Of a DNA stretch of 64,000 bases, positions 27,678-57,186 are shown piece by piece. A model generated the notes under the pieces. The model worked only from the letters and a program-made list of their open reading frames with translations. It was not told the DNA's origin and ran no database searches. The stretch is from Myxococcota bacterium (lineage in GTDB: Bacteria > Myxococcota_A > UBA9160 > SZUA-336), in the NCBI GenBank assembly GCA_965247115.1, contig CBDFGR010000003.1:451867-515866 (forward strand), given 5' to 3'. Within the stretch, counting starts at the first letter, position 1; the number at the start of each line of letters is the position of its first letter. The translations under genes and the position numbers were made by a program.

Positions 27678-29306
27678 CTAGAACTCGCTCAAGGAGTGCG
27701 CCCGTCCGTCGAGCTGTTCGGGGGTCTCGAGAGCGAGCCAGCGAGCGAGCGTGGGCGCGATGTCGACCGTGGCCACGCGGCCAGAGCGCTCTGCCGTCTT
27801 CACGCCCTGACCCCAGAAGACCAGCGGGACTCTGCGGTCGTATGCGTAGACGCTGCCGTGCCCCGTGCCCGTGTCGGAGGGCGAGATCAGGCAGGTGCGT
27901 TCCAGCTGGATCAAGAGGTCGCCGCTGCGGCCAGGGACGAAGGAGTTCCGGTAGAGCCTTGCCTGCGCCCCGCTCTCGCTCCGGATCTCGTCTGCTCGCC
28001 AGGCGCGCGCGACCGCCGGGACTCGCTCCAGGTAGGCTTCCGCCACGTCCAGCACGTTCTCGACCGGGATGCCCGCTCGCCTGGAAAGCAGGCGGCGGAC
28101 GCCGATGCGCGAGCCCGCGATGGTCACCCACTGCCTCGGCCACGAGAAGACGCCGCCCAGCTCTTTGTGAAGCTCAAAGAAGAGCCCGAGCACCAGCATC
28201 CGCAGTCCCGCCCGACCATCCTCCTCGGGACATGCGAGCCCTCCCTGCCCTGCCAGCCATTCGGGCAGGGGAAGAACGCCGTGGTCGGAGGTGAGCACGA
28301 CCAGCAGGCTTCCCGCTCCCAGCTCAGCGTTCAGGAAGTCGAGAAAGCGGTCGAGCTCGCGATCGAGACGCACCAGTGTGTCGCGCGACTCGTGGCTGTA
28401 GGGACCGTAGAGATGGCCGACCCGATCCGTGGCGGACAGCGAGATCGCGAGCAGGTCCGGACCCTCTCCCCGACCGAGCCGCGTTCTCGTGACGAGCTCT
28501 CTGGCGAAGCGCAACGTGACCTGATCGAGATAAGGGGTGGCGTAGAGATTCTCTGCAAACCGCTCGGGGTCTCCGTGCAAGAGCGGATGGCCGCTGGTGC
28601 GACCGTACTCCGGAGACTCGCCGGGAAAGTCGTCCGTCCTCCCGGCGGGCACGCCGCTCGCCACGTCGTGTGTCCACGTCCGGGGCAGGCCGGTGGTGAG
28701 CGCAGCGTTGAAGGCCGTCACCCAGGCCGGGCGCTCGTCCACGTAGTAGCGGCTCGTGGTGAAGCCAACAGCGTCGCTGCGGTTCAGCCAGTAGGCGGCA
28801 TCCGCGCTCTGTCCACCGAGCATGATGGCGGCTCGGTCCTTGCCAGAAACGCTGAAGACACGCGTCTCGGGCCGCGCACGCTTCATCCAGTCTCCGAGCG
28901 ACGTCGAGCGCAGGTGTCGCGGAGAACGGCCGTGCTCCGCGCCGAACACGAGCGCATCCTCGCGCGGATCCTCGACGCAATAGGTCGGCCTTCCACCCTC
29001 ACCATCAAGGAAGCGGTTGCCAGGAATTCCACTCCCCGATGGGTGTCGGCCGGTGACCATGCTGGCGTGTCCCGGACAGGTCTCGGTAGTCGCGTGGTCG
29101 AGCCACGCGTTCGTGTAGCGCAGCCCTTCCCTCGCGATCCGACCGAGCCCTCCTGGCAGGCCCTCGTCGACCCGGTCTGCGCGCAGCTGGTCGATCGACA
29201 GCAGCAGCACGAGGCGCGGCAGCTCCGCTGCCGAAGCCGGGCCCGCGCTGCCGCTCGCCACGAGGAGAAGCGTCGCGAGAGCGCCGCTGAAGCGTACGCG
29301 ACTCAC
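27678..29306 (-). CDS. Secreted alkaline-phosphatase-superfamily protein (type I phosphodiesterase / nucleotide pyrophosphatase-like).
   Basis: GTG start at 29306 gives the signal peptide MSRVRFSGALATLLLVASGSAGPASA. Metal-site motifs LLLSIDQLRADR, TETCPGHASMVTG and VLTSDHG. The upstream 120 codons of the track ORF are Arg/Ser-rich junk. Confidence 0.7.
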   Translation of the reverse strand: MSRVRFSGALATLLLVASGSAGPASAAELPRLVLLLSIDQLRADRVDEGLPGGLGRIAREGLRYTNAWLDHATTETCPGHASMVTGRHPSGSGIPGNRFLDGEGGRPTYCVEDPREDALVFGAEHGRSPRHLRSTSLGDWMKRARPETRVFSVSGKDRAAIMLGGQSADAAYWLNRSDAVGFTTSRYYVDERPAWVTAFNAALTTGLPRTWTHDVASGVPAGRTDDFPGESPEYGRTSGHPLLHGDPERFAENLYATPYLDQVTLRFARELVTRTRLGRGEGPDLLAISLSATDRVGHLYGPYSHESRDTLVRLDRELDRFLDFLNAELGAGSLLVVLTSDHGVLPLPEWLAGQGGLACPEEDGRAGLRMLVLGLFFELHKELGGVFSWPRQWVTIAGSRIGVRRLLSRRAGIPVENVLDVAEAYLERVPAVARAWRADEIRSESGAQARLYRNSFVPGRSGDLLIQLERTCLISPSDTGTGHGSVYAYDRRVPLVFWGQGVKTAERSGRVATVDIAPTLARWLALETPEQLDGRAHSLSEF

Positions 29307-29328
29307 GCCAACCCGGGCGGAGCGGGGC

Positions 29329-30186
29329 TCAGCCGCGCTCCGCCACCAGGGTCTGCAGCCGCGCCCACTCGTCGAGGTAGCGCGCGAGGTGGGACCGGTC
29401 GGCCTGCCGACTCTCCGTGTGCAGAAGCTCGCGGAGGCGCTCCTGCTCCAGGGCGTACTCGTCGCTTGTGAAGTGGCCACCGAAGTGCGCGAGCCGCAGC
29501 CACAGCAGATAGGTCGTGAGCGCGTCGAACTCGTTGTACTGCACGATCTTCGCGAGCTCGCCGTCGAGCCACAAGCGCGCGACCTGGCTTCCGTCCACCT
29601 CCATCTTGCCCGGGATTCCGGACTGGGTCGCGAGCTCGTGCAACGACGGCGTTCCCCTGCCAAAGCCAGCGAGAATTCGCTTCAGGTCCACGTTCCAATC
29701 GCTGCTGCGAGCGAAGTAGTCAACGCCCTCCCAGGGCCGCTCTGGCCGCTCGCAGAAAGCCGCCGAGCGCAAGCCAAGAATCGTGCCGCGCTGCAAAAGC
29801 AGCTTGAGGTCCGAGTCGATCGAGTTGAAACCTACCAGCTGCGGTCGGCGCTGACCGACGGCGTCGAGAAAGGTGCTGACGATGTGGGCTTCCGTGCACT
29901 CGTCGTCGGAGGACGGATCGCGGGGCAGGGACAGCAGGTACAGGGTCACCCCTGTGTCGGTGACGCGCCTCTCGACCGCCGCGATCGAGACCACACGACT
30001 GACGGCCAGCTTGAGAAAGGGCGTGGGATCCTCCGGCGTCGCTCCGCCCCGTTGCCACATGAGCTTCATGATCTCTTCGGGATCGGTCACGGAGTCCGGC
30101 ACATCGTAGAGCAGACGCCCCGCCAGGGGGTCCGGGATCCACTCAGCGTCGAAGGCCCACACTCGCTCGGCGACGTACTTGATCAT
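29329..30186 (-). CDS. Predicted 3'-5' exonuclease (COG3298, PolB-exonuclease-like).
   Basis: N-terminal VWAFDAEW (Exo I DxE-like) and overall match to the COG3298 family; 285 aa. Confidence 0.5.
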   Translation of the reverse strand: MIKYVAERVWAFDAEWIPDPLAGRLLYDVPDSVTDPEEIMKLMWQRGGATPEDPTPFLKLAVSRVVSIAAVERRVTDTGVTLYLLSLPRDPSSDDECTEAHIVSTFLDAVGQRRPQLVGFNSIDSDLKLLLQRGTILGLRSAAFCERPERPWEGVDYFARSSDWNVDLKRILAGFGRGTPSLHELATQSGIPGKMEVDGSQVARLWLDGELAKIVQYNEFDALTTYLLWLRLAHFGGHFTSDEYALEQERLRELLHTESRQADRSHLARYLDEWARLQTLVAERG

Positions 30187-30270: not shown

Positions 30271-30675
30271 CTAGGGACTGGCAGCGACGGAGACCGCGAG
30301 CCCTAGACGACCCGCGGCACTCATTGCGCTCAGGCCATCTTCCCAGCGCGTGTCCGCGTCGGCGCGCAGCGTGATGGCAGACGCGTGCGAGTCTGCGAGC
30401 GCCTCTTCCAGGCCTCGGAGTCCGCCGGCGATGCGCCGATCATCCAGCCAGACCTCGGGCTCCCCGGCAGACCTGGGGCGCAGCGTGACATTCAGCGCCG
30501 CCGCGTCGGCGCTTCCCAGTGCGTTCGCACTGCTCTTCGGGAGCTCGATCGGCGGCAGCGTGGTCTCCTGTGCGTGCGACACCAGCCAGACGATCGCCAC
30601 CATGAGCGCGGCCATGGTGAGGAGCATGATGTCGGGAGCTCCCTCCAGACCCGTACCGGGATTCCAGCGGCGCAT
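30271..30675 (-). CDS. ExbD/TolR-family biopolymer transport protein.
   Basis: Single N-terminal TM (IMLLTMAALMVAIVWL) and a periplasmic domain with LNVTLRP...EVWLDDRRI...AITLRADADTRWEDGLSAMSAAGRLG matching the ExbD/TolR pattern. The start overlaps the ExbB stop. Confidence 0.75.
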   Translation of the reverse strand: MRRWNPGTGLEGAPDIMLLTMAALMVAIVWLVSHAQETTLPPIELPKSSANALGSADAAALNVTLRPRSAGEPEVWLDDRRIAGGLRGLEEALADSHASAITLRADADTRWEDGLSAMSAAGRLGLAVSVAASP

Positions 30676-31499
30676 CAAACGCGCACCTCGCGGACGGGGA
30701 GTGCGCTGTCGAGTCGCCGCCACAGAACGTCGCGGATCCTGGCGTGCCACTCGTCGGGCACAGCTCGGACGAGCTCGAGTCGCAGTGCTTCGGGCTGACG
30801 CGCCCGTAGCGCCAGCACCAGCGCCTCGAGCCCCGCAGCATCGTCACCGAGCGCATTTCCCTCCAGCTCGAAGCTCACTCCTCCCGCGCTCCGCTGGACC
30901 TGCACGCGGGACCACGCGGGGTTGAGCGTGGCGATCACGAGCGTGGCGATCTGCAGGCCCAGACCCAGGAGCGTGGAGGTCATGGCCGCTCCCAGACCCG
31001 CCAGCAGGACGGGAAGGCGCGAGAGAAAGTCGCCTCCCCCGAGCGCATCAAAGGCAAAGCTCAGACCCCAGACGGTTCCGCAGAGCCCGAGCGCGGCGAA
31101 AAGCGGCGCGAGCTGACCCAGCTCTGGTCGTACCGGAGAGGCCGGCGGCCCGTGACCGTGGCGGGTCCGCAGGGCCCGGGCGGCAAGCCAGCCCACCCGC
31201 AAGGCAACCAGGAGCATGGGGACCCAGACCGGCCCCAGTCTGCCGTTCAGAGCGTCGACCAGGTGAACACCCCCCCGGGCCAGCTCGGTCGCCGAGCCAA
31301 GCGCAGGTGCCTCGGGCCCCACGCGCAGCGCGAGCACGCCGAGACCCCCGAGCACCGCGCCCAGAGCCGCAGAGCGCAGCAGGGGTGCCAGCCACGGGCG
31401 GGCCAGCGACAGGGCATCGGCGCTCAACGCGAGCCCCCGCGGACTCGAAAGACCTCCCCGGCGAGTCCCTTTCCCGGCGCGGGGATGAGACCACTCCAC
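30675..31499 (-). CDS. MotA/TolQ/ExbB-family proton channel protein.
   Basis: ALGLCGTVWGLSFAF and AMTSTLLGLGLQIATLVIATL correspond to the conserved GLLGTVxGM and ALxTTxxGL helices. The exact start is uncertain because the 5' end overlaps the upstream small ORF. Confidence 0.75.
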   Translation of the reverse strand: MEWSHPRAGKGTRRGGLSSPRGLALSADALSLARPWLAPLLRSAALGAVLGGLGVLALRVGPEAPALGSATELARGGVHLVDALNGRLGPVWVPMLLVALRVGWLAARALRTRHGHGPPASPVRPELGQLAPLFAALGLCGTVWGLSFAFDALGGGDFLSRLPVLLAGLGAAMTSTLLGLGLQIATLVIATLNPAWSRVQVQRSAGGVSFELEGNALGDDAAGLEALVLALRARQPEALRLELVRAVPDEWHARIRDVLWRRLDSALPVREVRV

Positions 31500-31804
31500 T
31501 CCAGCTCGTTCGCGAGCAGCAGCGCGCCCAGGCGGTCCCGCTCGAGCCCGTGCGGGAGTGTCGTCGTGTGCAGGCGAGCGGGGAGCAACGGGCTCGACGA
31601 GCAGGCCACAATGCCGTGCTCGGCCTGCACCAGCTCGAGCAGCGCGTTTGCGGGCGGCTCCTGCGTGAACCAGTCATGGACTGATTCGACCACGATCGCA
31701 CGCTGCCAGCCGCGCTTGCCGTTACATGATACGGTGTCAGCAGTCGCGGTCGACGCCGAGAGCGTCAGCAGCCCTGCCAGGCCAAGTACTCCGATTCGGA
31801 TCAT
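31424..31804 (-). CDS. Small secreted protein.
   Basis: MIRIGVLGLAGLLTLSASTATA signal peptide; 126 aa; two Cys. Confidence 0.35.
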   Translation of the reverse strand: MIRIGVLGLAGLLTLSASTATADTVSCNGKRGWQRAIVVESVHDWFTQEPPANALLELVQAEHGIVACSSSPLLPARLHTTTLPHGLERDRLGALLLANELEWSGLIPAPGKGLAGEVFRVRGGSR

Positions 31805-31830
31805 GCGCCTCTCCTCTTGGTTCGTTGGGT

Positions 31831-32790
31831 TCAGCGGCAGTCGCCCCACTCCACGCAGTCATCGAAGCCATCGAGCGGGTCGGCGGACGCGGTGGTGCCG
31901 GAGAACGCCTCCTCTTCGATGTCTTCCAGGACGCGCCGCGTGGAGTCCTCGATGTCGAGGTCCGGGAGCTCGAGCCCCCGGATCGCTCCGAGCCGCGCAA
32001 AGTGAAGCCTCAGCATCTGGTTCTGGGCAGCCACCTGGAGCAGCAGGCCCTGGTGATCGAGGGCCCCGCGCAGCGCGCGCGCCTGGTCGATCAGCGAACG
32101 GACCACAAAGGTGCGTTCGCGCACCAGCTCGACGGTCAGCCGGATGCCTTCGGAGGCTTTCGCCCGTCGCAGGTTGCGGTTCAGCACCCGCGACGTCGCC
32201 CAGAGGGCCCGGAACCGCGGGTCGTCGCGTGTGAGCGTGCCCCACTCCTCGAGCACGGCCAGGGCGATGCCTGTTCCCTGCTGCAGCGACCGGAAGGCGG
32301 CCTCCGCCTGTACTTCGTTCCCGCTCTGCTCGAGTCGACCCGAGTGTTCCAGCGCCAGGGCCAGCTTCTCCAGATTCTCGAGGATCGCGCTGCCGTGGAC
32401 GTCGAAGGAGCGGATCGCGTCGAGGTCGGCAGCGTGCCGCTCCGCAAGCGCCTCGAGGTAGCGAGACTTCACCTCGATGCGATGCTCCTCCATCACTCGG
32501 GCGGCCGGCGAGTCGGGCTCCCGTTGCTCGGGCTGGAGCTCGCGCCGCTCACGCTCGATGGTGTCGAGCTCCTCCTCGATGCCGGAGATACGGGACTCGG
32601 TGAGGGCCCGTCGCGCCTCGATCTCGGTGGACGAGCTCTGCAGCTCCTCGTAGTGGTCGCTGATCGCCCGGTTCAAGCTGTCGATCTGGTCCAGCGTCTC
32701 CTCGTCAAAGGGCACCGCGGGGGCACCCGTCGCAAGAGAGGGGGTCGTGAGCAGCAGCGCGACGAAGCAGCTGAGCGTCTTGTGGAGCAT
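31831..32790 (-). CDS. Secreted coiled-coil protein.
   Basis: ATG at 32790 preceded by AGGAGG; signal peptide MLHKTLSCFVALLLTTPSLATGA; long heptad-like E/R/L-rich region; C-terminal DDCVEWGDCR. Confidence 0.5.
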   Translation of the reverse strand: MLHKTLSCFVALLLTTPSLATGAPAVPFDEETLDQIDSLNRAISDHYEELQSSSTEIEARRALTESRISGIEEELDTIERERRELQPEQREPDSPAARVMEEHRIEVKSRYLEALAERHAADLDAIRSFDVHGSAILENLEKLALALEHSGRLEQSGNEVQAEAAFRSLQQGTGIALAVLEEWGTLTRDDPRFRALWATSRVLNRNLRRAKASEGIRLTVELVRERTFVVRSLIDQARALRGALDHQGLLLQVAAQNQMLRLHFARLGAIRGLELPDLDIEDSTRRVLEDIEEEAFSGTTASADPLDGFDDCVEWGDCR

Positions 32791-32847
32791 GGTTCCTCCT
32801 GATGTCCGCCGAGAGAAGTTCGGATCAAGCACCGTCCCCACGTTCGG

Positions 32848-33390
32848 TCAAGGAAGCCCGCGAGCGCGGTACTCCCGCTCGTAGCGCAGCACGCGCGCGA
32901 TATAGGAACGAGTGCTCGTCGGCACCGACGCAAGTCCGCGCCCTGCGCGTTCGGGTCCCGCGTGGTAGGCGGCCAGCGCGAGCCTCACGTTTTGGAAGCT
33001 CTCGAGCTGGTCCGCGAGGTAGCGCGCGGCGCCGTCGAGGTTCTGGGCGGGGTCGAACGGATCGCGCACCGCGAGCGCGTCCGCCGTCTTGGGCATCAGC
33101 TGGCCCAGCCCCTGCGCCCCGGCGACCGATACGGCCTTCGGATCGAAGCCACTCTCCGTGCGCACCAGCGCCGCCAGTAGCGAGCTCGAAAGACCGTGGC
33201 GTCGGGCGGCCGTGCGGATCTCCAGAGCAAAGGGCACGTGCACGGTGGGCGCGACGACGGGTAGCCACTGGCCCCGAGCGATGCGCTGCAGACGCGCCAG
33301 CGCCGCGCGGTCAGACGCGTGCGCCGGCGCTGACAGGCCCAGGACCAGGAGGATCCCGACAGCGAAGAGGCGGAGAGGGATGAGCCTCAT
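32848..33390 (-). CDS. Lytic transglycosylase (SLT-domain) protein, secreted.
   Basis: Signal peptide; SLT catalytic region ALVRTESGFDPKAVSVAGAQGLGQLMP (ES-GF and GLMQLMP-like motifs); AAYHAGPERA. Confidence 0.85.
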   Translation of the reverse strand: MRLIPLRLFAVGILLVLGLSAPAHASDRAALARLQRIARGQWLPVVAPTVHVPFALEIRTAARRHGLSSSLLAALVRTESGFDPKAVSVAGAQGLGQLMPKTADALAVRDPFDPAQNLDGAARYLADQLESFQNVRLALAAYHAGPERAGRGLASVPTSTRSYIARVLRYEREYRARGLP

Positions 33391-34172
33391 GTGCGCTCCG
33401 CCGCGGAGAGATCGATCCGCAGCCCGAGCTCGCGCTCACTGCCGTCGCGTAGCGCGACCGTGAGGACCTCGCACTGAAGTCTGCCGCCGCGCAGCTCGTA
33501 GGCCACGTCGACGCGCAGCAGCGAGTCCGAGCTCACGCCGAGCTCGCGCAGACGCCGATCGAGGGCGCCGAGCAGCGCCGCGTCCAGGCTTGCCGGTGGC
33601 AGCAGCACGACTCGAGAGACGCGCGCACCATAGCGCTCCCGGCCGAGCGCGAGAGCGCTCTGCAGGTGACGGGTGACGTCCCGCGGCCAGCGGCTGAGCT
33701 CTTCCCGGAGACCTTCGGCCCCGAGCAGGCCGCTGCGCGGGTCCACCTCGGCGAGCGCTCGACGCGCCCGCGGGTCGTACACGTAGAACGCGCCCCCCAC
33801 CTCGAGGACAGCCTCCCGGTAGGCGGCGAAGCCGATCCGGATGTAGGTGGCCCGCAGTCGGGGGAAGGCCCCCGCGCGCAGCAGGGCGTCCCCACGCGCG
33901 AGGGCCTCGGGATCAGGGCGCAGCGCGGCAGGTTCGCTCTCCGCCCCGATCTCTGGCTTTGCGAGCTCGGCCCTGGGCGCAGGCGTCTCCCGCACCGGTG
34001 GCGCGAGCTCAGGCTCGCTCGGCTCCGCAAGCTCGATGCGCGCGATCTCGATCGCGCGCACAGCAGCAGTAGCGACGCTGGGCTTGCTGCGCTGCGCGCC
34101 GCCAGCGCGGAAGAGCAAGATCACGCTGAGCGCGACCGCTATCGTGACCGCCCACTCGAGCGTGCGCCTCAC
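33387..34172 (-). CDS. TonB-like envelope-spanning protein: N-terminal TM anchor, Pro/Glu-rich linker and a ~170-aa C-terminal domain unlike canonical TonB.
   Basis: GTG start at 34172 (MRRTLEWAVTIAVALSVILLF TM); linker ELAEPSEPELAPPVRETPAPRAELAKPEIGAESEPAALRPDPE. The upstream 150 codons of the track ORF are Arg-rich junk. Confidence 0.45.
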   Translation of the reverse strand: MRRTLEWAVTIAVALSVILLFRAGGAQRSKPSVATAAVRAIEIARIELAEPSEPELAPPVRETPAPRAELAKPEIGAESEPAALRPDPEALARGDALLRAGAFPRLRATYIRIGFAAYREAVLEVGGAFYVYDPRARRALAEVDPRSGLLGAEGLREELSRWPRDVTRHLQSALALGRERYGARVSRVVLLPPASLDAALLGALDRRLRELGVSSDSLLRVDVAYELRGGRLQCEVLTVALRDGSERELGLRIDLSAAERT

Positions 34173-34579
34173 GGGCTCGGCCCACGTGCGAGGTCCATGA
34201 CACGATCGAGTCGCGAACGGATCTCCTCTGCCTGAAGCCGGCTCAGCTCGCGCGCCGACGTCGGCTCGGGGTGCAACGCCGAAGCTCCTCCCTCGGGCAG
34301 GAGCGACCCAACCGAGTCTTCCGACGGACCGAGATCCGGCTCGAACTCCCGGCGAGCGGATACGTCCGGCAGGCCGGCATGGGTCGCGTCGAGCGTCGAG
34401 GACTCGAGCTGGCTCGGGCGCGCCGCGAGCTCCGCGGTCTCGGTAAGGGCATCCAGCGCGTCCGCCACGCCCTCGCTCACGCGGGCGGCCGGCTCGCGCC
34501 AGCTGCCTGTGTCGAGCGCCAGGTCGACCCCCCAGATGACGAGGGCCGCGCTCCCCAGCGTCGCGAGCAGGCGGATCAT
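34169..34579 (-). CDS. Small membrane-anchored protein.
   Basis: MIRLLATLGSAALVIWGVDLAL N-terminal TM followed by an acidic soluble part. It is 4-nt coupled to the upstream and downstream genes. Confidence 0.4.
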   Translation of the reverse strand: MIRLLATLGSAALVIWGVDLALDTGSWREPAARVSEGVADALDALTETAELAARPSQLESSTLDATHAGLPDVSARREFEPDLGPSEDSVGSLLPEGGASALHPEPTSARELSRLQAEEIRSRLDRVMDLARGPSP

Positions 34580-35088
34580 CCGCCGACCTCGAGCGGCGGG
34601 AGCAGCCGCCGCAGATCACGCGGGATCCGTGCAGACCCCGTCATCTGACCGCAGAGACGATCCCGAATGGCCAGATGGACGAAGAGCTCACCGGCCGCCT
34701 TCTCGCTGCGACTCGCCTCGCGCTCCCAGGCTCCCACAGCCTGGATGTAGAGCTCTCGATCCCCCGCCCGGAGCGCGCTGCGCGCCGCAAGGCGCTGGCA
34801 GGCGCGGCGCAGGTCGCGCTCCACCCTGGGGTCCGCCACGTCGCCCGCGAGCAGACACATACGGGCCGCCCCGGCGTAGTCAGGGCCGCCGGTCCGCTCC
34901 GGGTCGAGCAGATGAAGCGCCGCCTCGGCCAGCTCGCCGGGGCGCGACGGGTCGGCGTCCTCCGGGGAGAGGGCCTTCGCGGGATCGGAGGGCATGCTGT
35001 AGAGCCCCGGGGCGGGACGGACCGAGGCACAGCCTGCGAGCAGCAGTATGGACAGGGCGAGAGAGTGCAATTTCGGGGCTTCGGTCAC
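34576..35088 (-). CDS. Lipoprotein, first gene of the envelope operon.
   Basis: MTEAPKLHSLALSILLLAGCAS signal with lipobox LLAGC; 170 aa. Confidence 0.5.
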   Translation of the reverse strand: MTEAPKLHSLALSILLLAGCASVRPAPGLYSMPSDPAKALSPEDADPSRPGELAEAALHLLDPERTGGPDYAGAARMCLLAGDVADPRVERDLRRACQRLAARSALRAGDRELYIQAVGAWEREASRSEKAAGELFVHLAIRDRLCGQMTGSARIPRDLRRLLPPLEVGG

Positions 35089-35329
35089 TGGCTTCCTCCT
35101 GCCGGTCGGGGCTCTCTACCAGCCTCACCCTGGCGCTCTGGCGTTTCGACGCCGCCCGCCACCGGCGCGGGATGCTCGAGTGAGCCCGCGTTTCGGGACT
35201 GTCTGAAACACGCAGCTCACGCCGCGACGAGACCATGCTGCAACGGTTAACAGCTCCAGCGCTTCGGTCGGGGCCGAATACCCGCTACAGGCCGAGCGCC
35301 TAACTGTGTGAGACTTGGAGGACCCGCCC

Positions 35330-36760
35330 ATGCCAGACGCAGAGAGGCAGCCTGACCTTCGAGATCAGCTTGCCGGAGCCGCCCAGGGAATCGCAGCGAA
35401 GCTGGTCGGAGATCCACAGCGGAGAGCCGAGAGCCTCGGCGAGATCTTCCTCGCCTGCGAGCAGACCGTCCGCGAGCACCCGGACGAGTGCCGCGAGGCG
35501 CTTGCAGTCGGCACCCTCGAGAGCTTTCTCTTGCCCTGCGTCCGGGCCAGCTTGCGCCGTGGCGAACCGTCGCCGCCGCGCGGCGGCTGGCTCGGGACCT
35601 TCATGAGCGTCGACGGGCGCCCCATCGAGCCCGACGAGGCAGAGGATCCCGGTAGCCTGGACCGGGGCGCACTGGAGCTGAGTGAGCGGGCACTCCACCG
35701 CGCCATTTCAACCGCGGCAGCGGAGGGCAACGAGACGTTGCTGCGCAACCTGCGCTGGTATCAGGAGCGGCTCGCCCACAAATCGTACGACGCCATCGCT
35801 CGAGAACAGGGGCGGATCCCGGCGACGGTGCGAACAGGCGTGGCACGCGCCAGAAAGTTCGTGCTGCGCGCCGTCCACGAGCTCAGGAGCGCTCAGCCCG
35901 CACCGCTCTCCGGAGAAGCTCCGGCGGAGCTCGAGCCGCTGCGACAGCTCTGGGTAGACCAGGAGCTCGACGCGCTGGCCCGGGAGATGGAGCGGACCCG
36001 AGCCACGCACTCCGACGACGCCCACTGGCTCAACCTGGCTGCACTGCTGGCAGGGGAGCGGGGCACGAAGGAGCAGGCGGAGGGGCTCTTCGAGAAGGCG
36101 CTCGTGTTCGCTGATGCTCCGAGTGTGCGCGGACGGATCCTGAACAACCTGGGCAATCACGTCGAGGACCTCGGCGATGCCGACTCGGCGGTCGCGTACT
36201 GGTTGCGCGCCACGCAGCTGGTCCCGCACGCTCCTGCACCCCTCGTAAACCTGCTCGCGGCCGCGTCCGGGCGGAAGGACTACCCGGCTGCTCAGCACTA
36301 CATCACCCAGCTCGGCGATCTCTTGAGCTCGGGTCACCTGCGGTCCGAGGAGAGGTCCTACCTGTGTCGCCGCCTGGCCGAGCATCCGAAGCTCGCCTGG
36401 CTGCGCGATACGGACGCGTGGCGCGTCGGTCCCGCCCGCTGGATCCGAGCCGCGCGCGCAGCTCGGTCCTTGACGGTCGCGGCCGCGGCAGCGGCAACTG
36501 CCGCGCTGGCCCTGCTCGTCCTGCTGACCCCGCAGCCCGCGGCGGCCTCAAGCCCGTCCGAGGCGGTGCTGCAAACCGTCGCTGCGGCGACGCTCGGCGA
36601 CAGCATGAGCTTCCAGCGCGGCCGGGGCGGCGACTCGATGGGCAAGCCACCGAAGAAGCTCCGCCCGGACGACGTGCACCTGCGGCACATGTTCCTCGCC
36701 GGCGACTCGATGGGTCGGAGCGGCTCGGGCAGAGGAGGCTCGCGACCGCGCGGCTCCTGA
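35330..36760 (+). CDS. Regulatory protein with a sigma-70 region-4-like HTH, a TPR-like middle region, one TM helix and C-terminal 'GDSM' repeats.
   Basis: ATG at 35330 after GGAGGAC. LLRNLRWYQERLAHKSYDAIAREQGRIPATVRTGVARARKFV resembles ECF sigma region 4. TM LTVAAAAAATAALALLVLL, then three GDSM motifs. Confidence 0.4.
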   Translation: MPDAERQPDLRDQLAGAAQGIAAKLVGDPQRRAESLGEIFLACEQTVREHPDECREALAVGTLESFLLPCVRASLRRGEPSPPRGGWLGTFMSVDGRPIEPDEAEDPGSLDRGALELSERALHRAISTAAAEGNETLLRNLRWYQERLAHKSYDAIAREQGRIPATVRTGVARARKFVLRAVHELRSAQPAPLSGEAPAELEPLRQLWVDQELDALAREMERTRATHSDDAHWLNLAALLAGERGTKEQAEGLFEKALVFADAPSVRGRILNNLGNHVEDLGDADSAVAYWLRATQLVPHAPAPLVNLLAAASGRKDYPAAQHYITQLGDLLSSGHLRSEERSYLCRRLAEHPKLAWLRDTDAWRVGPARWIRAARAARSLTVAAAAAATAALALLVLLTPQPAAASSPSEAVLQTVAAATLGDSMSFQRGRGGDSMGKPPKKLRPDDVHLRHMFLAGDSMGRSGSGRGGSRPRGS

Positions 36761-36795: not shown

Positions 36796-37623
36796 ATGAG
36801 TTCCGGGGGGGAGAGCGCGGCCCTGGCTGGGTGGCGAGCCAGGCTCCACGAGATCATCTTCGAAGCGGACACTCGCGCAGGCAAGGCCTTCGACGTGGGA
36901 CTGCTGCTCACGATTACAGCCAGCCTCGTCGCGGTCAGCCTCGAGACGGTGTCGCCTTACGGGACCGAGCACGGGCGCACGCTGCGACTCCTGGAATGGG
37001 GCTTCACGCTCGTATTCAGCGCCGAGTACGCCTTGCGGCTCTTCTGTGTGCAGCGCCCGCTCGCCTACGCGCGCAGCTTCTACGGGATCGTGGACCTGCT
37101 GGCCATCTTCCCGACGTACCTGAGCGTGCTGTTCCCCGGTGCGCAGTCCTTCCTGATCGTTCGCGCGCTGCGCCTGCTGCGCGTGTTCCGGATCTTCAAG
37201 CTGGCCCGCTTCGTGGGCGAGATGGAAGTGCTGCGGACCGCCCTGCGCCAGAGCCGGCGCAAGATCACCGTGTTCGTGATCACGCTGCTCACGATTGTCG
37301 CCATCATGGGCGCCCTGATGTACCTGATCGAGGGTGACGAGTCCGGATTCACGAGCATCCCGCGCGGGATGTACTGGGCGATCGTGACCATGACCACCGT
37401 CGGATACGGGGATATCTCGCCCCAGACGCCGCTGGGACAGGTCGTAGCCTCTGTCTTGATGGTGATGGGCTACGGGCTTCTTGCCATTCCCACGGGGATC
37501 TTCTCCGCCGAGCTGATCGAGCTGACGCGGAAGCCGGTCAGCACACAGGTCTGTCCCAGCTGCTCGGCGGAAGGCCACGACGCCGATGCCGTCTACTGCA
37601 AATTCTGTGGCGTGGGTCTCTAG
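36796..37623 (+). CDS. Voltage-gated-type K+ channel (6TM, S4 sensor) with a C-terminal zinc-ribbon.
   Basis: S4 RALRLLRVFRIFKLARF with regularly spaced Arg; selectivity filter TTVGYGD; C-terminal CPSC...CKFCG. Confidence 0.85.
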   Translation: MSSGGESAALAGWRARLHEIIFEADTRAGKAFDVGLLLTITASLVAVSLETVSPYGTEHGRTLRLLEWGFTLVFSAEYALRLFCVQRPLAYARSFYGIVDLLAIFPTYLSVLFPGAQSFLIVRALRLLRVFRIFKLARFVGEMEVLRTALRQSRRKITVFVITLLTIVAIMGALMYLIEGDESGFTSIPRGMYWAIVTMTTVGYGDISPQTPLGQVVASVLMVMGYGLLAIPTGIFSAELIELTRKPVSTQVCPSCSAEGHDADAVYCKFCGVGL

Positions 37624-37754: not shown

Positions 37755-38084
37755 GTGTTTGAGGAACGTAGTTTGGCCAAGAAGCTATACGTAGGGAATA
37801 TTTCGTTCACGACGACCGAGGTCGAGCTTCGAGAGGTGTTCGAGAAGCACGGAGCCCTGGAGTCGGTCAACGTGATCACGGACCGGGAGACGGGCCGGTC
37901 GCGTGGATTCGCATTCGTCGAGTTCGCAGAGGAGAGCGGCGCGCAAGCCGCTCAGCAAGCTCTGGACGGCACGGAGCTGAGCGGGCGGAGTCTGCGTGTG
38001 AATGAGGCTCACGACCGTGGGCGTGGCGGTGGCGGTGGCGGCGGCGGTGGTGGCCGCGGCGGCTACGGGCGAGATCGCTACTGA
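37755..38084 (+). CDS. RRM-domain RNA-binding protein with a Gly-rich tail.
   Basis: RNP-2 KLYVGNI, RNP-1 RGFAFVEF, then GGGGGGGGGGRGGYGRDRY. A TTG at 37773 may be the real start. Confidence 0.85.
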   Translation: MFEERSLAKKLYVGNISFTTTEVELREVFEKHGALESVNVITDRETGRSRGFAFVEFAEESGAQAAQQALDGTELSGRSLRVNEAHDRGRGGGGGGGGGGRGGYGRDRY

Positions 38085-40910: not shown

Positions 40911-42164
40911 TCACTCCGTGTCGGGCAGGAGTGGTGCGGGCTTGCCGAAAAGCCAGCCCTGCCCGAACTCGATCCCGAGTTTACCGAGCGTGCGCAGCTC
41001 CTCGAGCCTGGAGAGCCCCTCGCCGATGATCCTTGCGCTCGTATCCTCGGCGATCGCCTGGAAAGCGCGCACCATGTTCTGCCGGGCAGGATCCTCGTCG
41101 ATACCCTGGACGAACGCGCGGTCGATCTTGATGAACTCCGGCGCGAGCTCTAGCACGGCCTCCAACGAGGCGTACCCCGCCCCCGTATCATCCAGCGCGA
41201 ACGTGAAGCCAAGCTTCCCGTACGCATCACGCGCCTCGCGAAAGATCTCGTAGTTCTCGATCGACTCCTGCTCCGAGATCTCGAACACCACGTCGCTCGG
41301 GCTCAGCCCACAGTGGTCGAGCGTGGCGGTGAGCGCATCGGGCTGAAAACTCGGGTCATGGATCGCAGTCGGACGGATGTTGATGAACAGCTTCACCTGC
41401 TCGGGGAAGTCGATCGCTCCCTCGATCGCCTTTTGCCTGCACAGGCAGTCGAGCTCGAATGTCAGGTTCTCGCGCTCGGCGAGGCCAAAGAGCGCCAGCG
41501 GCGAGGACAGCCCGCTGCCTGCCGGACCGCGCGCGAGCGCCTCGTACCCGAACACCGTGAAATCGTTGGCGTACACGATCGGCTCGTAGACCGACCGCAG
41601 CCGGCCCGACACGATGATGTCCAGGAGCTCGCGCCGATTGTCGCGAATGCAGAGGCTGGCGTTCAGCTCAGCGTCGCGCCGCGCCGCGCGGAGCGCGTCC
41701 CGCAGCTGCGTGGCGCCGGAGACGAGCGGGTTGCGCAGCACGAACGCCAACCCGACGGACAGCGCCGGGGTCTCGCGCAGGTACGGATAGACGACCCGCT
41801 GACCGGTGCGCTCGATGCGCTCCCTGATCACCTTGGCGAGCTGGGGAAGCCCTTCGCGGTAGAATGGTGCGTCGCCAGGATCGCGCGCCAGGCAGAGGAT
41901 GACCTCGCTGCGGCCCACCTCGCCGGAGGCGAGTAGCTCACCGCCGCCGAAGTCCTCCTCGCAGACGGACTTCACGATGCCAGCCAGAGTGCAGAGGGCC
42001 CGGCTGTGGGCCTCGTGACCATAGCGGCGCTCGATCTGATCGAGCGGGCTGGCGTCGATGGTGATGACTCCCAGCGCGCCCGCAGCCGAGAAACGCTTCT
42101 CGATCTCGGCGCTCACGTCCCCCAGAGGGAGGATGAATTCCAGAATGGCGGGAGTGTCCGGCAT
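40911..42164 (-). CDS. c-di-GMP phosphodiesterase: EAL domain with a degenerate N-terminal GGDEF-like domain.
   Basis: FGYEALARGP (EAL), the conserved Q/N/E/D motifs, and DDTGAGYASL (DDFGTGYSSL). Confidence 0.85.
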   Translation of the reverse strand: MPDTPAILEFILPLGDVSAEIEKRFSAAGALGVITIDASPLDQIERRYGHEAHSRALCTLAGIVKSVCEEDFGGGELLASGEVGRSEVILCLARDPGDAPFYREGLPQLAKVIRERIERTGQRVVYPYLRETPALSVGLAFVLRNPLVSGATQLRDALRAARRDAELNASLCIRDNRRELLDIIVSGRLRSVYEPIVYANDFTVFGYEALARGPAGSGLSSPLALFGLAERENLTFELDCLCRQKAIEGAIDFPEQVKLFINIRPTAIHDPSFQPDALTATLDHCGLSPSDVVFEISEQESIENYEIFREARDAYGKLGFTFALDDTGAGYASLEAVLELAPEFIKIDRAFVQGIDEDPARQNMVRAFQAIAEDTSARIIGEGLSRLEELRTLGKLGIEFGQGWLFGKPAPLLPDTE

Positions 42165-42681: not shown

Positions 42682-45600
42682 CTACTTCGTGCGCAGGCCA
42701 GGCGGCCCGTCGCACACGCCTGCAGCTGTGAGCACGCTCAGGGCCTGCCTCTCGTAGCGCCCCAGCCCGCGCTCGCGAAACATCGCGGCAGACTCAGCGG
42801 CGTCCCGGTCTCGCGCCTCGGCCTCACCGCGTAGGGCCGCCAGCTTCGCGCGGCCGAGCAGCGCCTTGGCTTGTACGAAACGCGCGCCGAGGTTCCTGGC
42901 CGAGCGCAGCGCCTCGTTCAAACAACGCTCTGCATTCCCCCACCCAGACGGACCTCCTGCCAGCGCAACGGCGCCCAAGCTCAAAAGGCCCCTGGCCTCG
43001 CGCAGGCGGCCGCCGCCGCGGGCACTGCTTCCCTCGGCAACCCGCCTCGCGCGCTCGAGCTCGCCGGCTGCGAGCAGCGCTTCCACGATCAGGTCGACGT
43101 TCGTGGGCAGCTCGCCGTTTCGGAGGCTCTCCTCGATCCTCTCGAGCTCCGCGGCCTCCGCCATGCGCTCGCCACTCTCGGCGCGCACGGCGATCCTGAC
43201 GGCTCGCATCGATCGGGCGGCCGCCACGTTCTCGATCTGATCCGCGATGCCCAGGTCGAGCTCCGACCAGCGCCCGGCCTCGGAGCTGTTGTCTTGCGCG
43301 AACTCCAGGAAGGAGAGCAACGCGGCGCTCCCGGTCTGGAGAGTGCGGTTGTTGTGACGACGCGCCAGCTCGTAGGTCTCGCGCAGGCGGGGCTCCACCG
43401 TCAGGAACTCATCCGCCTCGAAGAGGACCCGGTCCCGAAAGAAGAGCGCGCCCAGGTAGGCGTCCGAGCTGCCTTCCTTCCCGTACAGTTTCTCCACCTC
43501 GAGCAGGGCCGCTTCGCTCTCGCGGCGAGCGTCCTCGAAACGTCCGTCGCGTGCGAGTGCCCAGCCGAGACTGCGGGAGATACGGGCCGCCGACGCCTCG
43601 TGTCCAGCCCGACGCGCGACGTCCAGGCCCTGCTCGACCAGAGCCAGTCCCTCGTCGAAGTCTCCATCGCGACTATCGATCACGAGCAGGCCGCGGTTCG
43701 CCAGCAGGTTCGCAAGCTCCTCACGGTCAGCGAGCCGCTCCGCGAGCTCTATGCCACGGCGAGCAGCCCGGAGCTGCTCTTCTCGTTCTCGCCCGTAGAC
43801 GAGGCCCACACGCGCGACACCCGCACTGGCGTGGAGCACCGAACGCAGCAGCGACTCGTCCTCGTCGGGCGATTCGCCGAGGTTGGCCTCGGCCAACCCC
43901 CAGGCCTCCCGATACAGGCGAGCCGCATCCCCGTACGACGGCAATGCCCCTGCCTCTGCGCCGGCCTGGAGGAGCAGGCGCGTACCCTTGCCCCGATCGT
44001 CGCTGCGGGCAAAGTGGTGCGCCAGCAGCGGCAATCTCACCCTCGCTTCTCCGTCCGCCGCCTCGAGCAGCTCGCCTACGCGCCGGTGCAGCGTGCGCCG
44101 CTCGCGCAGCAGCAACGCGCCGTACGCAACCTCCTGCGTCAGGCTCTCACCGAAGCGGAACTCGTCCTTGTCCACGCCGAGCTTCCGGTGGACGATCCCG
44201 AGTCGCTCGAGCTCCTCGAGCTCCCGATCCACGTCGATGTTCTCTCCGCTCGCGAGGGCGGAGAGCTGCGGCCTGCGGAACTGGCGTCCGAACACCGAGG
44301 CGATCTGCGCTACGCGCTTGGCCGAGGGGCTCAGGCGGTCGAGCCGTGCCTCGAGCAGCTCGTGCACGGTGTCGGGGATGCGGATCTCTTCGACCGGACG
44401 GGTGAGCTCGACCCGACCCGAGCTACTCACCAGCGTCCCATCCTCGACCAGGGTCTTCGTCAGCTCCTCGAGGAACAGCGGGTTTCCCTCGCCCTTGGCG
44501 AGCACACGCTCCTCCAGCTCGATCGGGAGCGGACCACCCGCGCGGGCACGCACGATCTCCGCGCCCTCCTCCCGAGACAGGGGGGAGAGGTGCAGCTGGG
44601 TCAGCGCCGCTGCGGACTTCCAGGCCGGCACGTATTGCGGCCTGTGGGTCACGAGCAGCATCGAGCGACCCTGCTCGAACTTCGAGAGGGAGAGCTCCAG
44701 CATCTCGCGCGAGGCGTCGTCGATCCAGTGCAGATCCTCGACGATCATCAGCACAGGCGTACGCATGGCTGCGCGCGTGACGAGCCCCACCACCGCGGCG
44801 AACGAGCGCAGCTTGTACTCCTCGGCGCCCACCTCCACGTCGGGTAGGGAGAGCATGGCGTGGAGACCTGGGGCGACGTCCTCCTCGTAGGTGCCGAGAC
44901 CTGCCAGTCCCTTTTCGATCTTGCGGCGAGTTTCCTCTGCCTCTTCTCCCGGCACGATGCCGAAGTAGCGCTGAATCATGCTGACCCACGGGGAGTACGG
45001 CGTGCCCTGAGTCAGCGAAGAGCAACGCGCCTCGAAGAGGGACACCTCGTCTTGCTGAAGCTGCTGCTTGAACTCGTAGATCACGCGCGACTTGCCGGAG
45101 CCCGCTGGGCCGACGACGGCGACAACCTGGCCAAGGCGGCCGCGCGAGCTCTGGTAGCACGAGTCCAGCTGAGCCAGCTGCTCGGCTCGGCCGACGAGAG
45201 GCGTCAGCCCCTCGGAGCGCGCGATGGACATGGGTGTGAGGACCTCGGACAGGCCGAGTACCTCGTGCGCCTGAATCGGGTCGCGCTTGCCCTTGACGTC
45301 GAACGGGCCGAGCGGACGGGTATGGAAGGCGTCGCGCACGACGCGGTGTGTGGCATCACTGACCAGGATCGAGCCCGGAGCAGCCAGCGTCTGGAGCCTA
45401 GCCGCCAGGTTCGTCGTGTCGCCGATCGCGGTGTAGTCCATCTTCAGGTCGTTGCCGACGGTACCCGCCACGACCATCCCGGTATGAATCCCGATCCGTG
45501 CCCTGAGCTCGATGCCTCCCGCCCGCGGCTCGAGCAGAGAGAGCGCGCGCTGGATCGCGACCGCCGCGCGAACTGCGCGCTCGGAATCGTTCTCGTATGA

Positions 45601-46089
45601 GATGGGTGCGCCGAAGAGCGCCATCAGCCCGTCGCCCGAGAGCTGGTTCACGACGCCCTCGAGGCGATAGACCTCCTCGAAGACGAGCTCCAGGTATGAC
45701 TCCAGCAGCTCCCTGTACTCCTCCGGGTCAAGCTCCTCGGCAATCGCCGTAGAGCCCACGAGATCGCAGAACAGTACGGTTGCCCGCTTGCGCTCGCCCG
45801 CCACCGAGCCTGCCTGACGGATCTTCTCCGCCGCCGCCTGCGGGATGTGCCTGGCGAGCCGTAAGAAGCGCTCGCCTTCCGCGTCCGTCTCGCGCTGCGC
45901 AGGGCTCTCGACCGCTCCGGCAGCGGGATGCGGGAGGGAAACCGAGGTGCCGCAATCGGGGCAGAAGCGGTACTCCGGCTCCAGCGGCGCGCCACACCGG
46001 CCGCAGCCGCTCGACGCCCGGGCCCCACAGACGTGGCAGAAGCTCTTTCCCTCGATCAGATCCGTCTGGCAGCTGGAGCACCGCATCAC
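42682..46089 (-). CDS. Multidomain signalling protein: double zinc-ribbon, class III adenylate cyclase (CHD), STAND/AAA NTPase and TPR repeats.
   Basis: CSSCQTDL...CHVCG...CGRCGAP...CPDCG; cyclase FCDLVGSTAIAE...RIGIHTGMVVAGTVG...GDTTNLAARL; Walker A GPAGSGKS; long TPR-like C-terminus; 1135 aa. Confidence 0.85.
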   Translation of the reverse strand: MMRCSSCQTDLIEGKSFCHVCGARASSGCGRCGAPLEPEYRFCPDCGTSVSLPHPAAGAVESPAQRETDAEGERFLRLARHIPQAAAEKIRQAGSVAGERKRATVLFCDLVGSTAIAEELDPEEYRELLESYLELVFEEVYRLEGVVNQLSGDGLMALFGAPISYENDSERAVRAAVAIQRALSLLEPRAGGIELRARIGIHTGMVVAGTVGNDLKMDYTAIGDTTNLAARLQTLAAPGSILVSDATHRVVRDAFHTRPLGPFDVKGKRDPIQAHEVLGLSEVLTPMSIARSEGLTPLVGRAEQLAQLDSCYQSSRGRLGQVVAVVGPAGSGKSRVIYEFKQQLQQDEVSLFEARCSSLTQGTPYSPWVSMIQRYFGIVPGEEAEETRRKIEKGLAGLGTYEEDVAPGLHAMLSLPDVEVGAEEYKLRSFAAVVGLVTRAAMRTPVLMIVEDLHWIDDASREMLELSLSKFEQGRSMLLVTHRPQYVPAWKSAAALTQLHLSPLSREEGAEIVRARAGGPLPIELEERVLAKGEGNPLFLEELTKTLVEDGTLVSSSGRVELTRPVEEIRIPDTVHELLEARLDRLSPSAKRVAQIASVFGRQFRRPQLSALASGENIDVDRELEELERLGIVHRKLGVDKDEFRFGESLTQEVAYGALLLRERRTLHRRVGELLEAADGEARVRLPLLAHHFARSDDRGKGTRLLLQAGAEAGALPSYGDAARLYREAWGLAEANLGESPDEDESLLRSVLHASAGVARVGLVYGREREEQLRAARRGIELAERLADREELANLLANRGLLVIDSRDGDFDEGLALVEQGLDVARRAGHEASAARISRSLGWALARDGRFEDARRESEAALLEVEKLYGKEGSSDAYLGALFFRDRVLFEADEFLTVEPRLRETYELARRHNNRTLQTGSAALLSFLEFAQDNSSEAGRWSELDLGIADQIENVAAARSMRAVRIAVRAESGERMAEAAELERIEESLRNGELPTNVDLIVEALLAAGELERARRVAEGSSARGGGRLREARGLLSLGAVALAGGPSGWGNAERCLNEALRSARNLGARFVQAKALLGRAKLAALRGEAEARDRDAAESAAMFRERGLGRYERQALSVLTAAGVCDGPPGLRTK

Positions 46090-57057: not shown

Positions 57058-57186
57058 TTCAGCAGCCAATACGCGACGCCATTCGCACAGGTTACGGCGT
57101 CTGTCGCCGGAAGATCGAGCGTAGCCCTGCCTGGCGGCTCCGCTCGACAAATCGCAGACTGCAGCACTCGGGCCACGGGGGCGGAC

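Follow-up and report, generated by a model that had tools for sequence, protein, structure and literature searches.

A conserved gene cluster with an ExbB/ExbD-type motor pair and a lytic transglycosylase in Myxococcota: a candidate member of an undescribed family of envelope machines

Which system is encoded where a run of eight minus-strand genes sets an ExbB/ExbD-type motor pair beside a TonB-shaped protein and a lytic transglycosylase? The genes lie between positions 30271 and 35088 of a 64,000-nt stretch of DNA from a Myxococcota bacterium (the window; GC ~69%; GenBank assembly GCA_965247115.1, contig CBDFGR010000003.1, positions 451,867 to 515,866), and all coordinates below are those of the window unless a locus is named. 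An initial annotation, made from the letters of the window, had proposed an energised envelope machine matching no named system. That interpretation is supported here, with function and co-transcription still presumed: at a probability of roughly 0.6, the cluster is considered to belong to a so far undescribed family of envelope machines of the Ton/Tol type, which would be driven by the proton-motive force (PMF) and tied to peptidoglycan cutting.

Layout and conservation of the gene set

All eight minus-strand open reading frames (ORFs) of the initial annotation were found at or near the positions it gave. A ninth gene, g0, and a wider, permuted family of clusters had been missed. The genes are as follows (HTH, helix-turn-helix; TPR, tetratricopeptide repeat; TM, transmembrane).

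35315..36760, plus strand: g0, HTH-TPR-TM protein, 481 aa, divergent from g1
34576..35088, minus strand: g1, lipoprotein, 170 aa
34169..34579, minus strand: g2, TM-linker-amphipathic helix protein, 136 aa
33387..34172, minus strand: g3, TonB/TolA-shaped protein, 261 aa
32848..33390, minus strand: g4, secreted family-1 (SLT-domain) lytic transglycosylase, 180 aa
31831..32790, minus strand: g5, secreted all-helical/coiled-coil protein, 319 aa
31424..31804, minus strand: g6, small secreted protein, 126 aa, two conserved Cys
30675..31427, minus strand: g7, ExbB/TolQ-like stator A subunit, 250 aa, start TTG at 31427
30271..30675, minus strand: g8, ExbD/TolR-like stator B subunit, 134 aa

Overlaps of 4 nt join g1 to g2, g2 to g3, g3 to g4 and g6 to g7, and a 1-nt overlap joins g7 to g8. 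The chaining of genes by overlaps of 1-4 nt that had been described holds at five of the seven junctions, the other two being gaps of 57 nt (g4-g5) and 26 nt (g5-g6). The same pattern of 4-nt and 1-nt overlaps was found in L001, a locus of 55-65% identity (loci are designated here by L numbers). The operon appears real and conserved, and is presumably read as a single transcript. A scan for sigma-70 promoters and terminators was uninformative in DNA of 69% GC, and an Rfam scan of 29-38 kb returned no match.

The start of the ExbB gene had been placed at 31499 (GTG), giving a 76-nt overlap with g6. Orthologues align only from about residue 25 of that product, a TTG at 31427 overlaps the g6 stop as TTGA, and a 100%-identical product of 250 aa is recorded in public assemblies. 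The gene was therefore placed at 30675-31427. Pfam matched three of the eight genes above its cut-offs (g4, SLT; g7, MotA_ExbB; g8, ExbD), in agreement with the identities first assigned, and the essential Asp and Thr residues are kept. No significant match to g1, g2, g3, g5 or g6 was obtained in Pfam, NCBIfam or PADLOC. By hydropathy, N-terminal hydrophobic segments are present in g2-g6 and g8.

Word-indexed homologue searches with g3, g5 and g7 returned ~70-80 proteins each, all from Myxococcota or 'Deltaproteobacteria' metagenome-assembled genomes (MAGs) and all unnamed or 'hypothetical'. The gene set recurs in seven distinct Myxococcota-clade loci, the eight genes standing in the same order in every clade locus with enough flank. 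A scan of GTDB (one genome per species), utilizing patterns specific to the Myxococcota clade, located six species, all of them uncultured.

A g3 profile was then searched with HMMER against 1.84 billion cluster representatives, yielding 283 at E ≤ 1e-3, 162 at E ≤ 1e-10 and 29 at E ≤ 1e-30, the last group corresponding to the close clade. Distant members share 25-35% identity and lie on contigs of 43-72% GC with the layout kept; source names are carried by two of them, a Candidatus Rokubacteria MAG and a Syntrophaceae MAG. A metagenome scan with the g3 family returned two short loci. Distant contexts were examined in L012, L013, L014, L015/16, L017/18, L019, L020, L021 and L022/23. Eight distinct distant loci show the gene set as far as the contig reaches, near-complete in five and fragmentary in three short ones. 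Their gene order is as follows.

First: lipoprotein, 162-213 aa
Second: coiled-coil protein, 300-319 aa
Third: small secreted protein, 131-148 aa
Fourth: small ExbB, 160-175 aa
Fifth: ExbD, 124-148 aa
Sixth: g2-like protein, 136-243 aa
Seventh: g3-like protein, 269-334 aa
Eighth: second small TM-linker-helix protein, 105-157 aa, absent in L017
Ninth: SLT protein, 195-246 aa
Tenth: further small protein, 151-183 aa, in L015/16, L020, L021 and L022/23

Relative to this order the modules are swapped in the window, g2-g3-g4 standing ahead of g5-g6-g7-g8. Homology across the lineages was assessed with hidden Markov models (HMMs) of the window clade run against distant-locus proteins and ORFs in small databases. 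Scores were 79-121 bits for g3, 44-125 bits for g4, 28-41 bits for g8 (9.8 bits in L017) and 12-22 bits for g7. The g6 model gave 18 bits with a 148-aa gene of L017 (E 5e-6 among called proteins, 1.4e-4 among all ORFs), the g1 model matched the first gene of the cluster in L020 (19 bits) and L022 (23 bits), and the g0 model gave 51-53 bits in L017 only. Matches were weak for g5 (E 1e-4) and g2 (E 7e-3, to the g2-like gene of L017). These scores support homology of g0, g1, g3, g4, g6, g7 and g8 across lineages.

The arrangement is far beyond chance. The comparisons indicate that the gene set travels together in at least three phyla with its order permuted between lineages, and its retention despite rearrangement across phyla argues strongly that it is one functional unit. 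The context of L022 is a housekeeping one (ftsH, folP, coaX, greA, purE), and searches of plasmids and phages returned no copies of the cluster.

The motor pair, the TonB-shaped protein and their partners

The Pfam MotA_ExbB match of g7 (PF01618; 33.6 bits against a gathering cut-off of 22.9) covers the C-terminal TM hairpin only, and the same family is precomputed on 76 of 77 close g7 homologues. A 29-sequence profile of g7 matched TolQ (E 2e-4), ExbB (5e-3) and MotA (0.16) among PDB sequences and nothing else, the matches spanning only the TM2-TM3-type hairpin; NCBIfam gave a weak match to TIGR02805 (exbB2). Thr118, in the motif GTVWG, is invariant in the 29 sequences and Thr152 is conserved in at least 90% of them; they align with TolQ Thr145 and Thr178 (GTVWG and IAT). 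A pore Thr pair (ExbB T148/T181; TolQ T145/T178) and a TM Asp are described as essential in a 2026 review of Ton and Tol (PMC12905483).

The ExbD match of g8 is marginal (PF02472; 26.7 bits against a cut-off of 25.4), and a g8 profile found no relevant match among PDB sequences. The protein has a single TM helix in which Asp15 is invariant in six orthologues. An Asp stands at the equivalent TM place in the ExbD-like genes of L014, L016, L017 and L019, and the Pfam ExbD family is precomputed on the distant counterparts of L019, L020, L021 and L022. Four distant counterparts were reached by the g8 HMM at 28-41 bits. On these matches and retained residues, g7 and g8 are identified as highly divergent ExbB/TolQ- and ExbD/TolR-family proteins keeping the Thr pair and the TM Asp.

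In ExbB and TolQ there are three TM helices, the first two (TM1 and TM2) being separated by a large cytoplasmic domain. Judged by hydropathy only, g7 does not follow this plan: four hydrophobic segments were predicted, with a basic cytoplasmic loop of ~17 aa before the conserved hairpin. In the Myxococcota clade only, a C-terminal cytoplasmic extension of ~75 aa follows (residues ~175-250; 30675-30900), whereas the distant orthologues of 160-175 aa end after the last TM helix. From sequence pattern only, the extension has a beta-alpha-beta-alpha-beta look.

In g3, a TM helix (residues 8-26; nt 34095-34151) is followed by a Pro/Glu-rich linker (residues 27-85), variable in length among relatives, and by an alpha/beta periplasmic domain of ~170 aa (residues 86-258; nt 33399-33917). 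The anchor and linker that had been noted earlier are thus both present, and the layout of TM anchor, Pro-rich linker and globular periplasmic domain stands beside motor genes in all loci. An AlphaFold2 model built from a 29-sequence alignment had a mean pLDDT of 82, exceeding 90 across the C-terminal domain. Foldseek searches with this model gave no relative below E 0.17, the g3 profile matched nothing among PDB sequences at E ≤ 10, and Pfam identified no TonB_C, TolA or other family in the window protein or in 44 distant relatives. The SHLS motif (S-x3-H-x6-L-x3-S) was found in the TM helix of none of 73 g3-family sequences and none of four g2 sequences.

With no TonB_C or TolA domain, fold or SHLS motif, g3 falls outside the TonB and TolA families, and judged on these features 'TonB-like' describes its layout and not family membership. 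The non-canonical character that had been ascribed to its C-terminal domain was borne out by both sequence and fold, no TonB_C, TolA or other PDB relative being found, and the model predicts a novel fold without known relative. Residues kept family-wide are Y110, Y118, G126, S160, R164, P193, D197 and Y225 (window numbering). An internal duplication of the domain was considered and rejected (hhalign probability 0.8%).

The neighbouring g4 matched Pfam SLT (PF01464) with E 7e-25 (87 bits), and its TESGF lines up with the TESRF of an SLT domain of solved structure, placing the catalytic Glu in a TES motif. It is accordingly annotated as a secreted SLT lytic transglycosylase with its catalytic Glu. 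In all loci that reach that far, the g3-like gene is followed downstream by an SLT gene, with 0 or 1 gene between them. The best NCBIfam match of g4 is a flagellar-assembly lytic transglycosylase domain; small dedicated secreted SLT enzymes typically go with large envelope-spanning assemblies.

The lipoprotein assignment of g1 was upheld by a lipobox, LLAGC, whose Cys is invariant in 12 orthologues, distant ones included. The body of g1 is helical and possibly TPR-like, with weak TPR-like PDB matches only (E 0.025); a C-terminal motif, G..R(I/V)P..(I/V)R.L, is conserved, and no OmpA domain was detected. The g2 protein opens with a TM helix, continues as a variable, disordered linker and ends in an amphipathic helix that is conserved (…EEIRSRLDRVMDLA); its architecture and place are constant in all loci at lengths of 124-226 aa, and two g2-like genes flank the g3-like gene in distant clusters. 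The small secreted g6 is conserved in all Myxococcota-clade loci.

The g5 protein was modelled as long helices (pLDDT 71) and carries a conserved C-terminal Cys pair (C312, C318); a fold search gave generic helical bundles only. DUF3450 (PF11932) was matched below its cut-off in 6 of 30 g5 homologues (best 24.8 bits against 32.6) over profile positions 3-91, the N-terminal third, and was matched neither in the window g5 nor in four distant g5-like proteins. In the Vibrio TonB2 system, TtpB is the DUF3450 protein (PMC6957404). Membership of g5 in that family was rejected and the match kept as a weak lead, the signal being below threshold, N-terminal only and absent from distant homologues.

A proposed machine and the readings weighed against it

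In the proposed machine, g7 and g8 would form a 5:2 stator in the inner membrane, and proton flow through it would move g3, and perhaps g2, both anchored in the stator or next to it. The g3 domain would span the periplasm to its partners, namely the neighbouring SLT enzyme and/or the lipoprotein g1 with g5 and g6, these three being placed at the peptidoglycan or outer-membrane side. The SLT enzyme may cut a local gap needed by the assembly or may itself be the regulated output, in which case peptidoglycan cleavage would be gated by the PMF and would serve to maintain the envelope, not to import nutrients. Control of the operon in the Myxococcota clade would lie with membrane-tethered g0, which probably binds a palindrome described below.

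Motors of the 5:2 ion-driven type are reused for very different jobs in Ton, Tol, Mot, Agl, GldLM and Zorya, and for Tol-Pal a link between proton gradient and cell wall is known only indirectly. The present system is compact and conserved, at 9-10 genes, of which five or six encode components without family assignment, and its transducer domain is without structural relative. The constant presence of a lytic transglycosylase partner suggests a direct energetic link from the inner-membrane proton gradient to cell-wall remodelling. More tentatively, and with the odds leaning somewhat against it, the cluster may be the Myxococcota version of a third, unnamed family of proton-driven machines beside Ton and Tol, with a minimal stator lacking the cytoplasmic domain, a transducer of new fold and the co-encoded lytic transglycosylase as client. 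Were this so, peptidoglycan cutting would be gated by the PMF in a family present in at least three phyla. No description of a cluster in which ExbBD genes are joined by such a transducer and a lytic transglycosylase was found in the literature searched, subscription-only literature lying outside its scope. Further systems with 5:2 motors are explicitly expected by the field, and a role in force transduction has been proposed for TM-linker proteins whose C-terminal domain is not TonB and whose genes neighbour tolQR-like and TPR genes (PMC12204202); in concept this is the nearest precedent for the present cluster.

Several observations weigh against a single motor-driven machine. The SHLS motor-docking motif is missing in all 73 g3-family sequences and the hydropathy of g7 suggests an atypical, four-segment and loop-less stator A subunit, so that no sequence signature supports coupling of g3 to the motor. 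The g8 protein clears the cut-off of ExbD by a mere 1.3 bits and matches no PDB sequence. That g5 and g2 are homologous to the genes at the corresponding distant positions is weakly supported (E 1e-4 and 7e-3, from a tiny database), and no cultured carrier was identified among family members. Testable targets are offered by Asp15 of g8, Thr118 and Thr152 of g7, the S160/R164/D197/Y225 patch of g3 and the g0 palindrome; the family can be defined by HMM, which may be utilized to look for a cultured host.

The ninth gene, g0, encodes a sigma70-region-4/LuxR-like HTH (residues 157-183; nt 35783-35863), TPRs (residues ~230-325; profile against PDB consensus-TPR proteins, E 1.9e-23) and, by hydropathy, a single TM helix (residues 386-404), after which a periplasmic tail of ~75 aa is predicted. 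The tail holds GDSM[GS] motifs at nt 36596-36610, 36629-36643 and 36701-36715 (residues 428-467) and ends in a basic Gly/Arg-rich stretch. One to three such motifs are present per orthologue, the last being invariant in six orthologues. Identity as an ECF sigma factor was rejected: neither Sigma70_r2 nor an NCBIfam sigma model was matched, and Sigma70_r4_2 was sub-threshold in five of six orthologues (best E 1e-3, 13.9 bits). The g0-type genes of the Myxococcota clade encode ~430-480 aa and adjoin g1 divergently in six distinct loci besides the window (L001/L002, L003/L011, L004/L005/L008, L006, L007 and L010). A co-directional homologue was found in distant L017 (51-53 bits); no g0 adjoins the cluster in L009 or in the other distant loci. 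Two elements were recognised in the g0-g1 spacer.

35190..35209, strand not assigned: palindrome GTTTC-N10-GAAAC, single occurrence in the window
35141..35149, minus strand: second conserved box, CGAAACGCC, ~55-60 nt upstream of the g1 start

Each of the seven loci having g0 contains the palindrome, as GTTTC-N10/12-GAAAC, exactly once, in every case within the g0-g1 spacer (elsewhere at L001:8657, L004:8950, L006:2589, L007:1248, L010:4556 and L011:6847). L009, where no g0 adjoins the cluster, lacks the palindrome, as do all distant loci, so that g0 and palindrome co-occur perfectly among the loci examined. Since its arms are invariant and its spacer sequence is free, a protein operator is suggested, probably bound by g0. 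In L004, L006 and L011 the second box recurs at the corresponding position as GAAAC(G/A)CC, and L001 has it as TGAACGCC; it is a possible -35-like element.

The cluster could alternatively be a transcription-signalling device, in which motor and g3 act on the GDSMG tail of g0 to switch its HTH and the other genes are accessories; TonB-FecA-FecR-FecI surface signalling provides an analogue. The make-up of g0, in which an HTH and TPRs are joined to a single TM helix and to a motif conserved in the periplasmic tail, would suit such a device, as would its placement, divergent from g1 in seven clade loci and co-directional in L017, and the co-occurrence of the palindrome. The device is nevertheless judged unlikely: g0 is missing beside the cluster in L009, L015, L020 and L021 (L022 has too little upstream sequence for a judgement), the L017 homologue lacks the GDSMG motif, and the SLT, lipoprotein and coiled-coil components are left unexplained. 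A role of g0 as operon regulator is the simpler reading.

The eight-gene neighbourhood, whose conservation the initial annotation had put forward for checking, is conserved, yet by the defining features compared here the cluster is neither Ton, Tol-Pal, TonB2-type nor Zorya, and no Agl-Glt set was recognised in it by Pfam domains. Zorya-type anti-phage defence, in which an envelope motor of the MotA/ExbB family senses phage-induced damage to envelope or cell wall, is quite improbable. Shared with Zorya are such a motor within a multi-gene cluster of otherwise unannotated proteins and a cell-wall connection; g7 weakly matched PADLOC ZorA2 (E 1.6e-4, 18.9 bits), L020 adjoins Cas2, a reverse transcriptase and a ZorA/ZorB-like pair, and a predicted 3'-5' exonuclease lies downstream of the window operon. 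However, the other nine proteins scanned gave no PADLOC match, and a defence-system identity was rejected with PADLOC negative beyond the channel domain that g7 shares with ZorA2. The A subunit is without the long ZorA tail, the B subunit is ExbD-like and not OmpA-like as in ZorB, and no ZorC, ZorD or ZorE effector is present. No nuclease or effector is conserved with the cluster, the exonuclease being found only in the two closest relatives, and the L022 context is of a housekeeping kind, with no copy on plasmids or phages.

It is very improbable that g3 energises TonB-dependent transporters (TBDTs) encoded elsewhere, as part of a divergent Ton system forming an extra paralogue set like Vibrio TonB2. 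Ton and the cluster both have adjacent MotA/TolQ/ExbB- and ExbD-family genes with the essential Thr pair and TM Asp kept, and a neighbouring protein with N-terminal TM helix, Pro-rich linker and globular periplasmic domain. A TBDT is also present in the window (5169-7643). It lies ~23-25 kb off, in line with the earlier observation that no receptor is adjacent, and no TBDT adjoins the cluster in any of ~15 loci. Unlike Ton, the cluster has no TonB_C domain by Pfam, PDB sequence or fold and no SHLS motif, its A subunit, with four hydrophobic segments, is nearly devoid of a cytoplasmic domain, and its SLT, lipoprotein, coiled-coil and small secreted partners are obligatory; the conserved SLT enzyme has no place in such a system.

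The TonB2 system itself (TtpB-TtpC-ExbB2-ExbD2-TonB2-TtpD; PMC6957404) is closer in layout. In both, a secreted coiled-coil gene stands upstream of a small ExbB and an ExbD (the distant loci having ExbB2-like A subunits of 160-175 aa, and g7 its weak exbB2 match), a TM-linker-C-terminal domain protein comes next and a TPR protein is associated, as is TtpD (PMC6957404); a few g5 homologues add the sub-threshold DUF3450 matches. The cluster differs from TonB2 in having no TtpC, a DUF3450 signal that stays below cut-off and disappears in the distant g5-like proteins, a transducer that is not TonB_C, a TPR protein that carries an HTH and a TM helix, and SLT and lipoprotein genes. The transducers with vWA (von Willebrand factor A) domains (Williams-Jones et al., 2025; PMC12204202) resemble g3 in combining a TolA/TonB-shaped protein and a non-TonB C-terminal domain with a divergent 5:2 motor and a TPR gene. 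The g3 domain is not vWA and has no PDB match, the accessory genes differ (SLT, lipoprotein, coiled coil), and the SHLS motif retained by the first vWA family is absent in g3.

A Tol-Pal variant, serving outer-membrane stabilisation and constriction at division, is scarcely credible. The parallels are of composition: g7/g8 with TolQ/TolR, g3 with TolA, the lipoprotein g1 and the coiled coil of g5 with that of CpoB, alongside periplasmic proteins. Among solved structures g7 is closest to TolQ chains, a g5 homologue is called 'TolA-binding protein' by one source, and a link to peptidoglycan processing is plausible in both. Functionally, Tol is tied to the cleavage of peptidoglycan. Unlike tol-pal, the cluster encodes a dedicated lytic transglycosylase in a different gene order, with no YbgC, TolA domain III or SHLS motif; none of the nine genes has a Pfam domain of the TolB beta-propeller or OmpA-type Pal kind, so that there is no TolB-like gene and the lipoprotein is without an OmpA/Pal domain, and g5 lacks the TPR that accompanies the coiled coil in CpoB.

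Myxococcota utilize TolQR-like motors in gliding and spore-coat assembly, and GltG and GltJ carry a TonB_C domain. That the cluster belongs to an apparatus for motility or export (Agl-Glt/Nfs-like or Ton-dependent secretion), with the SLT as assembly enzyme only, would suit a small dedicated SLT enzyme and the flagellar-assembly match of g4, but is hardly to be expected, given a g3 without TonB_C, no outer-membrane beta-barrel, secretin, ATPase or recognisable Glt-type component in or beside the cluster in any locus (Glt-type components being judged by Pfam domains), and occurrence of the cluster in the Rokubacteria and Syntrophaceae MAGs as well.

Neighbouring genes and minor observations

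Two further minus-strand genes follow the operon proposed here for the envelope machine.

29329..30186, minus strand: g9, exonuclease with DNA_pol_B_exo2 (Pfam), predicted 3'-5'
27678..29330, minus strand: g10, secreted PafA/PhoY-like alkaline phosphatase, below equivalog cut-offs

These correspond to the exonuclease and phosphodiesterase that had been described as following on the same strand, and are real genes. The exonuclease is kept near the cluster only in the two closest relatives (L006 and L007) and the phosphatase only in L007; neither is therefore regarded as part of the machine.

On the other side of the cluster, a voltage-gated-type ion channel gene (36796-37623) lies between g0 and a gene for a small RRM-domain RNA-binding protein with a Gly/Arg-rich tail (37755-38084, plus strand); the channel gene is beside g0 elsewhere only in L006. 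In L020, just downstream of the cluster (L020:9797-12126), a 510-aa protein with a weak MotA_ExbB match and a coiled coil is followed by an OmpA-domain protein, the two forming the ZorA/ZorB-like pair, and Cas2 and the reverse transcriptase are encoded upstream of the cluster. In L014, the SLT gene is followed at L014:2968-5302 by a large P-loop protein (>778 aa; GQTGTGKTT) which by eye has the look of a HerA/FtsK/TraD-type ATPase.

Elsewhere in the window, a 1469-aa protein (16257-20666, minus strand) contains many thrombospondin type-3 calcium-binding repeats (Pfam TSP_3, E 3e-64), and an 861-aa protein (55786-58371, minus strand) gave sub-threshold MtrC/MtrF-like and cytochrome c554-like multihaem matches. 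A 1135-aa signalling protein (42682-46089, minus strand) combines an N-terminal double zinc ribbon, an adenylate/guanylate cyclase, an AAA_16 ATPase and TPRs, and its gene adjoins that of an EAL-domain protein (40911-42164).

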